Source: Escherichia phage Eryne. From it: a stretch of DNA of 64,000 nucleotides. Positions 23,970 through 24,137 of this stretch are shown piece after piece. The notes below the pieces were generated by a model. It had not been told where the DNA came from and made no database searches. It saw only the letters and a program-made list of their open reading frames with translations. The DNA lies in the sequence record PQ529420; one strand, 5' to 3'. The position numbers and the translations under genes were made by a program. The first letter of the stretch is position 1. Each line of letters opens with the position of its first letter.

Positions 23970-24137
23970 GCCTATGCCGGACACATAGGCGGCTAATAAT
24001 AACGCAACTACACACCCCACATAATAACCATCACCGATAGTTATTATTTGTGTTTATGTAGCTTGCAACAATTGCAAGCGCAACAATATACATGGTATAT
24101 TGTATCCCTTACATTGTTGCGGTGCGTTATTATTAGC
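23970..24137. repeat. nested inverted-repeat (cruciform-capable) region
   Basis: Hairpin gcctatg-N7-cataggc; outer IR gctaataataacgc ... gcgttattattagc; inner palindrome gcttgcaacaattgcaagc; IR cgcaacaat ... attgttgcg. Confidence 0.55.

Follow-up and report, generated by a model that had tools for sequence, protein, structure and literature searches.

Head-to-tail concatemers of phages with a short exact direct terminal repeat (DTR) hold one copy of it per junction, and therefore the repeat must be duplicated. The regeneration of the second repeat from concatemers has been debated since the T7 work of the 1980s and 1990s and was never resolved outside T7. Chung, Nardone and Hinkle are said to have proposed in 1990 that a hairpin-ended T7 intermediate primes the duplication of the repeat. 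Structured elements of other kinds include the packaging RNA (pRNA) of phi29, a structured molecule of about 120–174 nt encoded next to the genome end, and the G4-type single-strand initiation (ssi) signals and primosome assembly sites, which are strand-specific three-hairpin folds of about 100–150 nt, active only in single-stranded DNA (ssDNA). PMC4281155 cites a hairpin-ended intermediate in the duplication of the T7 terminal repeat, and the injection stop signal (iss) region of T5 was described as a conserved, untranslated cluster of nested repeats and palindromes at the terminal-repeat boundary, which carries DnaA boxes and whose function was left unexplained (10.1101/866236). Here, we analysed a 64,000-nt stretch of Escherichia phage Eryne (record PQ529420; this whole stretch is called the window and its positions are used below), in which nested repeats are present at a repeat boundary, and describe the noncoding element at 23970–24137 that these repeats form.

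Results

Predicted structure of the element

The initial annotation of the locus listed a hairpin, an outer 14-nt inverted repeat, a palindrome and a further inverted repeat (cgcaacaat/attgttgcg). All of them were found where it had placed them, with the correction that the outer repeat is 15 nt long, one longer than listed; its arms are 100% complementary and separated by 116 nt. As a single strand, the whole element is predicted to form a 168-nt multi-branch fold (Table 1). The AT-rich outer stem (15–16 bp) closes a four-way junction, whose three inner arms are stem P2 together with hairpin A, the palindromic hairpin (8 bp, invariant) and hairpin C, and hairpin H1 lies just outside, on the 3′ side of the main fold when the minus strand is read. 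Stem P2 and hairpin A had been overlooked in the initial annotation. The latter contains one C·A mismatch on the plus strand, which is a G·U pair on the minus strand. The weakest arm is hairpin C, which is also the richest in indels, and its loop contains CCCTTACA (24106–24113), the counterpart of CGCTTACA that is invariant in other genera.

The nested symmetry, which had been called unusual from the start, exceeds chance. The outer repeat is the only perfect inverted repeat of at least 14 nt with a gap of at most 150 nt in the window, where 0.06 such repeats are expected (100 shuffles), and the central palindrome occurs once even if up to three mismatches are allowed (0.00 expected). Compared with dinucleotide shuffles, the minimum free energy (MFE) of the element had z-scores of −8.42 (DNA, plus strand), −6.86 (RNA, plus strand) and −8.43 (RNA, minus strand), and none of the 200 shuffles folded equally well.

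Table 1. Positions of the parts of the element and of neighbouring features in the window
Feature	Position	Strand	Sequence or remark
Hairpin H1	23970–23990	minus	GCCTATG 23970–23976 / CATAGGC 23984–23990; 7-bp stem, loop CCGGACA
Outer stem, DTR-distal arm	23992–24006	minus	GCTAATAATAACGCA; perfect 15-nt complement of 24123–24137
Outer stem, DTR-proximal arm	24123–24137	minus	TGCGTTATTATTAGC; end of the element, 252 bp before the DTR start
Invariant stretch	24005–24013	minus	CAACTACAC; invariant alignment columns (21 relatives)
Stem P2	24008–24012 / 24057–24061	minus	CTACA / TGTAG; encloses hairpin A
Hairpin A and mid-stem	24018–24050	minus	ATAATAACCATC 24021–24032, ACC loop, GATAGTTATTAT 24036–24047; 12-bp hairpin
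Central perfect palindrome	24061–24079	no strand	GCTTGCAA-CAA-TTGCAAGC; stem invariant, variation confined to 3–4 loop bases
Hairpin C	24079–24121	minus	CGCAACAAT 24079–24087 / ATTGTTGCG 24113–24121
DTR, single collapsed copy	24390–24732	no strand	phi92 DTR aligned
AT-rich noncoding zone	23536–23969	no strand	23% GC, 434 bp; upstream of the element; three tandem direct-repeat sets
Strong intrinsic terminator	23281–23306		GGGCGC-ACAAA-GCGCCC, then TTTCTTTTT; 664 bp left of the element, at the end of a rightward small-gene operon

Conservation and covariation

Sensitive BLAST searches detected the element in 132 phage records, all of which belong to Stephanstirmvirinae (family 1 below), with identities of 95–100% in Justusliebigvirus and 77–83% in Phapecoctavirus and in Klebsiella/Citrobacter phages. 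Scans of IMG/VR and metagenomes, in which the invariant palindrome served as an anchor, gave fourteen pattern hits; nine more diverse copies were kept, and the other five were discarded as unrelated chance palindromes.

The pairing is kept by compensatory substitution, and thus the nested repeats noticed initially are conserved in relatives as structures. In an unbiased MAFFT alignment of 21 distinct family-1 sequences, H1 and the outer stem were 100% paired and each contained three covarying pairs (six in total), while no pair was broken. Double compensatory changes affected three of the seven pairs of H1 (GC↔CG twice and TA↔CG), and in the outer stem the inner three pairs covaried (AT↔CG, CG↔GC and GC↔CG/AT). 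The covariation score was 0.176 compared with 0.067 for column shuffles (none of 500 reached 0.176), and it did not exceed 0.044 when the partners were slid by 1–3 columns. RNAalifold reported compensatory changes in 12 of 38 pairs.

Since indels shift the MAFFT register in the lower part of hairpin A, the mid-stem and hairpin C, these parts were folded sequence by sequence instead, and all three proved to be kept in every lineage via different sequences. Hairpin A occurs as a 9-bp stem with a 3-nt loop in all lineages (ACTATT/AATAGT, ACGATT/AATCGT or GGAATAATC/GATTATCC), both sides being changed in eight pairs, and the stem of hairpin C in other genera is CGTAATG/CATTACG, CGTAAT/ATTACG or CGTAAT/ATTGCG. 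Stem P2 was predicted in every member, with a minus-strand G·U extension alternating between A-U/U·G and G·U/C-G. Little or no variation was seen in the stem of the palindrome, the ten outermost base pairs of the long stem, the loop of H1, CAACTACAC and CGCTTACA. ATTAGC(A)-type motifs recur downstream of the family-1 element in most genera.

The form and strand that fold

The outer arms covary even though they are 116 nt apart and enclose three hairpins, therefore the functional form must be single-stranded, either RNA or ssDNA. The initial annotation had suggested a potential large cruciform or a structured RNA. A classical cruciform was not supported, on account of the 116-nt gap of the outer repeat and the strand-asymmetric mismatches, only the small hairpins (3–7-nt loops) having suitably spaced arms; the structure itself was borne out, and a structured RNA is a tentative rival to the reading preferred below.

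When the plus strand was read, the single mismatches inside Watson–Crick helices were 23 A·C and no G·T, arising from about six independent events, so the number of independent wobble events behind the choice of strand is small. The A·C mismatches of the plus strand are G·U pairs on the minus strand, and where the plus strand is mismatched throughout, the minus strand alternates between A-U/U·G and G·U/C-G. The z-score was lower for the minus strand in 21 of 21 family-1 members and in 13 of 14 members of family 2 (34 of 35 together; family 2 is described below). The minus-strand consensus had 45 pairs and −57.8 kcal/mol versus 38 pairs and −46.1 kcal/mol for the plus strand. Based on these data, the minus strand, with its 5′-end toward the DTR, is favoured as the folding strand. 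Compensatory pairs together with tolerance of G·U on one strand were observed in family 1, and the pattern was weaker in families 2 and 3.

Position at the genome end

The region is 93–95% identical to phi92-like phages (Justusliebigvirus, Stephanstirmvirinae), and the window itself comes from a phage of this type. The 343-bp DTR of phi92 (NC_023693, 1–343 = 148270–148612) aligns with the window with 97.4% identity over 343/343 bp. It maps only once, therefore the window reads through a collapsed concatemer junction. Judged by this alignment, 24390–24732 is the physical genome end or concatemer junction to which the element is tied, and the conserved part of the right-hand unique end finishes with the element, 252 bp left of the DTR. 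PhageTerm called a 342-bp DTR in BME3, which belongs to Justusliebigvirus as phi92 does (PMC12210895). In the Phapecoctavirus Schickermooser, an exact 329-bp repeat is found at both record ends, and it starts 208 bp after the element. An origin, a packaging site or a noncoding RNA had been proposed for the locus at first; the phi92 annotation and the PhageTerm calls on relatives place it beside the packaging terminus.

Related elements in Vequintavirinae

Distant relatives were reached by following the neighbouring Gp30.8-like gene. At the equivalent position, they contain a zone free of open reading frames (ORFs) with an exceptionally stable fold. Family 2 consists of 64 records (4MG, GAP31, PVP-SE1, KB57, KNP2, Mydo and others), the outer stem of which is about 20 bp long (CGACACAATAACACGAGGG/CCCTCGTGTTATTGTGTCG), has four covarying positions and encloses a second long stem and two hairpins. 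Two members, Mydo and LNA4, carry 50-nt insertions of extra hairpins exactly at the loops of the fold (alignment columns 62–114 and 153–204). For KPP-1, another member, the DTR was mapped from reads and PhageTerm assigned the T7-type packaging class (PMC9862379); a distance of about 310 bp separates its outer stem from the boundary of the DTR, on the equivalent side. Family 3 comprises 118 records of rV5-like phages (Vequintavirus) with an 18-bp outer stem, an inner stem of about 28 bp and a GC-rich UCCG-loop hairpin at the position equivalent to H1. Because the sampled members show no variation in the stems, this family adds conservation and no covariation. In LL12, the DTR of which was mapped from reads by PhageTerm (PMC6658697), the element starts 211 bp from the DTR.

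A covariance model of the family-1 minus strand found one full copy in the window (171.5 bits) and a palindromic echo on the plus strand (40 bits). The same model matched family-3 elements with 26–31 bits (E about 2e-6 to 2.5e-5 over 12.9 kb) and the element of KPP-1 with 18 bits (E about 0.003), all matches in families 2 and 3 being oriented like the minus strand of the window. The parts that align across the families are the outer stem (TAATA..AA.GCA / TGC.TT..TATTA), GGGGGTG and the GC-rich UCCG-loop hairpin after the outer stem. The three families are probably diverged homologues; since the E-values are rough, homology is likely rather than proven. Together they include about 314 phage records from two subfamilies, Stephanstirmvirinae and Vequintavirinae. 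The element is always on one side of the DTR and in one orientation, with gaps of 252, 208, about 310 and 211 bp, and its distance from the DTR is constant across families whose spacers cannot be aligned.

Some peculiarities of single records are worth mentioning. LL12 has a 29-nt extra apical segment compared with other Vequintavirus members, and on either side of its element stands one copy of the exact 20-nt direct repeat GCCATGCCATTCGTTTGCAT (2541–2560 and 2834–2853 of the LL12 stretch). The counterpart in family 2 is the repeated motif TCGTTCGCGTTATCG, with one copy outside and one inside the fold. These flanking repeats, like the ATTAGC(A) motifs of family 1, may be iteron-like protein sites. 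Several records named as Campylobacter phages with the host C. jejuni (MG065639, MG065645, MG065656 and MG065689 among them) are about 93–99% identical to E. coli phi92-like or rV5-like phages here, which suggests mislabelled or contaminant genomes.

Coding potential, promoters and known RNA families

The region 23536–24675 is a 1.1-kb ORF-free zone, in which there is no ORF of at least 40 aa, and none longer than 38 aa at the element. A protein-coding reading was dropped on these grounds and because the indels between relatives are not in multiples of three. Many GenBank records place tiny "hypothetical protein" genes across the zone, including the element (UAB1_gp257 at 3016–3138 of its own sequence, and calls in ZYD, cardinal, VivaForever, FKP3 and WPEC1); for the same two reasons, these are probably spurious. 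A few records tag parts of the element as terminator, repeat_region or small hypothetical protein. We found no annotation, Rfam family or paper that describes the element.

With Rfam 15, the whole window gave no match at gathering score, and at E ≤ 10 the 23500–25000 segment gave noise only (16–23 bits versus gathering scores of 40–120). ARAGORN found no tRNA or tmRNA in the window. Scans of the window for sigma-70 promoters and terminators returned hits at chance density, with no terminator-like site in that scan, and promoter scans on both strands of eleven relatives likewise gave chance density without positional conservation, phage-specific unknown promoter types being outside the scan. 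Some members have a weak plus-strand promoter candidate, TTAGC[A/T]-N17/18-TATAAT, the −35 box of which would be the end of the outer stem.

Surroundings of the element

The terminator on the left of the element is followed by a 65-aa ORF (23319–23516), which may not be a real gene. The tandem repeats of the AT-rich zone are three 16-bp copies of TAATCATTTCATACAG (23880–23930), two 18-bp copies (23731–23778) and two 20-bp copies (23833–23878); the 16-bp set carries a repeat_region annotation in phages inny, muut and arall. The zone is AT-rich throughout Stephanstirmvirinae (19–33% GC) and weakly so in families 2 and 3, and its tandem repeats are lineage-specific. It may belong to the same module as the element. 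It has an origin-like look; no DnaA box (TTWTNCACA) was found in 23300–25000.

There are two copies of the 10-mer GGGGGGCGCT in the window. One (24239–24248) is in the spacer that separates the element from the DTR, the other (24710–24719) lies 13 nt before the right DTR boundary at 24732, and the 10-mer could contribute to a signal for cleavage or recognition. AGCCTAT, found at the beginning of both H1 and the DTR, was put down to chance, as the window contains six copies of it and Phapecoctavirus does not conserve it.

Fur-box-like sequences (AATGATAATCATT, up to two mismatches) had 24 hits in the window versus 6.7 expected, a number reached by none of 100 shuffles. Ten of the 24 fall within the 1.2-kb terminal noncoding zone (23512–24679), with a notable site at 24463–24481 inside the DTR, and a second cluster is located at 12415–12450. 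GCAAATGATAATCATTATC matches the E. coli Fur consensus at 17 of 19 positions (0.07 expected), and a related Fur-like box, AATGATAATTATTCTCATT, is kept in the Phapecoctavirus ESCO5. This pattern of motifs suggests that Fur, or a phage protein of like specificity, binds the genome-end region and possibly early promoters.

The half-site of the palindrome (GCTTGCAA/TTGCAAGC) is enriched in the window (9 copies versus 2.8 ± 1.7 expected). The extra copies, at 14862, 17051, 17707, 19454, 21072, 22746 and 27087, are spread over 14.8–27.1 kb on both sides of the terminus. They were dropped as candidates for related sites, being isolated and mostly inside ORFs, with no common context.

Discussion

A conserved fold at the genome end

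The element most likely helps to copy, cut or replicate the genome end. Among the more specific readings, we tentatively prefer, with limited confidence, that of a conserved noncoding cis-acting fold-back or four-way-junction element of the genome-end module, which rests on analogy with T7. In its favour are the constant distance from the DTR across families, the single-strand fold kept by covariation and the strand specificity. According to this model, the concatemer junction would be nicked and its strands displaced or unwound, allowing the minus strand to fold back at the element. The fold, a hairpin or a Holliday-junction-like structure, would then act as a signal, a primer end or both, where a nuclease or the terminase cuts and from which a polymerase could copy across the spacer and the DTR. 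In this way, the repeat would end up in both daughter genomes. A minus strand cut just past the outer stem could prime the copying of the spacer and the DTR by itself, and a junction-resolving nuclease would find a natural substrate in a four-way fold. The palindrome and the outer 10 bp, which are invariant duplex motifs resembling protein-binding sites, may represent the part recognized by protein, and this part could make the element the terminase recognition (pac) site of the right end. The action at the level of DNA is also consistent with the long perfect stems (15–28 bp) and the odd-length palindromes with 3-nt loops, which look more like DNA than RNA structures, and with the lack of a positionally conserved promoter or terminator and of an Rfam match in the scans described above.

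Several points weigh against this reading. The link to DTR processing is drawn from position and analogy, and synteny alone could hold any noncoding gene at this place. The classic staggered-nick model duplicates the DTR without an extra element, and a four-way junction with conserved loops would be superfluous for a simple fold-back primer. The right end of T7 shows no sequence similarity, giving no match with the family-1 covariance model, and the inverted repeat that we located there is presumably the published hairpin site. The strand bias is weak in family 2 (4 A·C versus 3 G·T) and mixed in LL12 of family 3, where the strand equivalent to the minus strand has the lower energy and the other strand the more extreme z-score. 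Abundant and persistent G·U-type pairs, covariation and hairpins inserted into loops, as in Mydo and LNA4, are classic signs of a structured RNA.

The last point leads to a possible if doubtful alternative, in which the element is a structured noncoding RNA gene of about 170–190 nt, transcribed leftward from the minus strand (from about 24140–24160 to about 23955). Such an RNA, with a four-way junction and a 3′ hairpin, could have a role in trans (in packaging, on the host or as a regulator) or could be a replication primer transcript. It would account for the covariation across four helices, the strand-specific wobble (23 A·C and no G·T on the plus strand) with the A-U/U·G↔G·U/C-G alternation on the minus strand, the lower minus-strand z-scores in 34 of 35 members, the conserved loops and unpaired stretches, the extra hairpins in the loops of Mydo and LNA4 and the equivalent orientation in which the covariance model matches families 2 and 3; moreover, weak minus-strand promoter-like sites were seen 11–40 nt upstream of the fold in 5 of 11 relatives. 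However, these hits are at chance density, no positionally conserved promoter or intrinsic terminator was detected, and Rfam had no match even at E ≤ 10. Perfect helices of 15–28 bp are substrates of RNase III and unusual in stable RNAs, most of the hairpins are odd-length perfect palindromes with 3-nt loops, and the wobble argument relies on about six independent events, with no bias in family 2. No transcriptome of these phages was found in the literature.

A role of the element within a replication origin, or as a signal for single-strand initiation (priming) close to the genome end, is rather unlikely. Here, the AT-rich zone would be the unwinding or iteron region and the folded minus strand the loading site of a primase or primosome, priming rightward across the DTR, like the three-hairpin G4-type ssi signals or the PriA assembly sites. 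The single-stranded and strand-specific nature of the structure agrees with this proposal, as do the upstream zone (GC 0.23) with its three sets of tandem direct repeats, the conservation of this zone in Stephanstirmvirinae and the size and three-hairpin layout, which resemble G4-type ssi signals. The T7 right-end promoter phiOR lies in the equivalent region and also has a secondary-origin role. Against the proposal, the tandem repeats are lineage-specific, families 2 and 3 have only a weak AT-rich zone, DnaA boxes are missing from the region scanned, the GC skew of the window tracks gene orientation only, and an initiator gene was not identified adjacent to the element. Furthermore, the constant distance of 210–310 bp from the DTR is explained no better than by the rival proposals.

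A cluster of binding sites in duplex DNA (an operator or sites of the terminase small subunit, possibly with local cruciforms and recognized by a dimeric protein) is very unlikely. The invariance of GCTTGCAA-N3-TTGCAAGC and of the outer 10 bp, while other stems vary, would fit it, and so would the ATTAGC-type motifs recurring downstream in most genera and the Fur-box-like motifs crowding the surrounding zone. However, protein half-sites should conserve their sequence rather than covary, and six pairs of H1 and the outer stem and many pairs of hairpin A have changed on both sides, none being broken; together with the strand-asymmetric mismatches, this disfavours the proposal. In addition, the outer arms are 116 nt apart and the extra half-sites of the palindrome are isolated inside genes without a common context. 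A mobile element resembling a miniature inverted-repeat transposable element was rejected because the element is single-copy in the window and occupies the same syntenic site in all records.

Significance

A more far-reaching proposal, which we consider speculative and rather improbable, is that an ancient, undescribed element is common to Stephanstirmvirinae and Vequintavirinae (three families, about 314 phages), being either a cis-acting, DTR-duplicating four-way fold of one strand beside the concatemer junction that is cut and primes the copying of the repeat, or an RNA linked to the terminus that takes part in packaging or replication in myoviruses that use a terminase. In any case, the element offers a defined target that can be mutated; it is strongly conserved, its pairing is backed by covariation, and in three lineages it keeps a fixed distance from termini mapped by reads. 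These lineages include many therapeutic candidates (phi92-like, phAPEC8-like, rV5-like and PVP-SE1-like phages). If it is a processing or packaging signal, the question of repeat regeneration becomes directly testable and the element marks what genome engineers must not delete near the ends; if it is an RNA, it represents a new phage RNA family.

Comparison with known systems

By analogy, the hairpin at the T7 junction appears to be the nearest functional counterpart. Both T7 and the phages discussed here have a short, exact, nonpermuted DTR (160 bp in T7) and T7-type packaging, as established by experiment for T7 and by PhageTerm for the relative KPP-1, and in both an inverted repeat that could fold back lies a few hundred bp inside the right terminal repeat. 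In T7, we located it at 39568–39608, about 170–190 bp left of the repeat (39778). The architectures differ: T7 has just one imperfect hairpin there, of 19 nt with a 3-nt spacer, whereas the element is a 168-nt multi-branch fold, to which the long-range outer stem, the conserved loops and the covariation are peculiar, and there is no sequence similarity between the two. Position and phage type are alike, and the two structures would be analogous and not homologous. We know of no hairpin-ended intermediates in phi92-like or rV5-like phages.

The nearest descriptive analogue would be the iss region of T5. Its repeat region 3, like the element, is better conserved than the neighbouring genes and is accompanied by boxes of a host DNA-binding protein, DnaA in T5. 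In contrast, the T5 region is mostly inside a 10-kb repeat at the first-entering end, whereas at the right end the element lies outside the 343-bp repeat and has Fur-like boxes instead of DnaA boxes. To our knowledge, two-step injection has not been reported for these phages.

The remaining two systems may serve as analogues for the rival readings only. The phi29 pRNA is comparable in size and multi-helix layout if the element is an RNA; however, it comes from protein-primed podoviruses without a classical terminase, and the element has neither an Rfam match to pRNA or any other family nor a conserved promoter. The G4-type ssi signals have no sequence relation to the element and lack its closing 15-bp outer stem and its invariant palindrome. 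Considering these comparisons, we conclude that the element is previously undescribed and, by the function that we infer for it, belongs among the terminal cis-acting structured elements of DTR phages.

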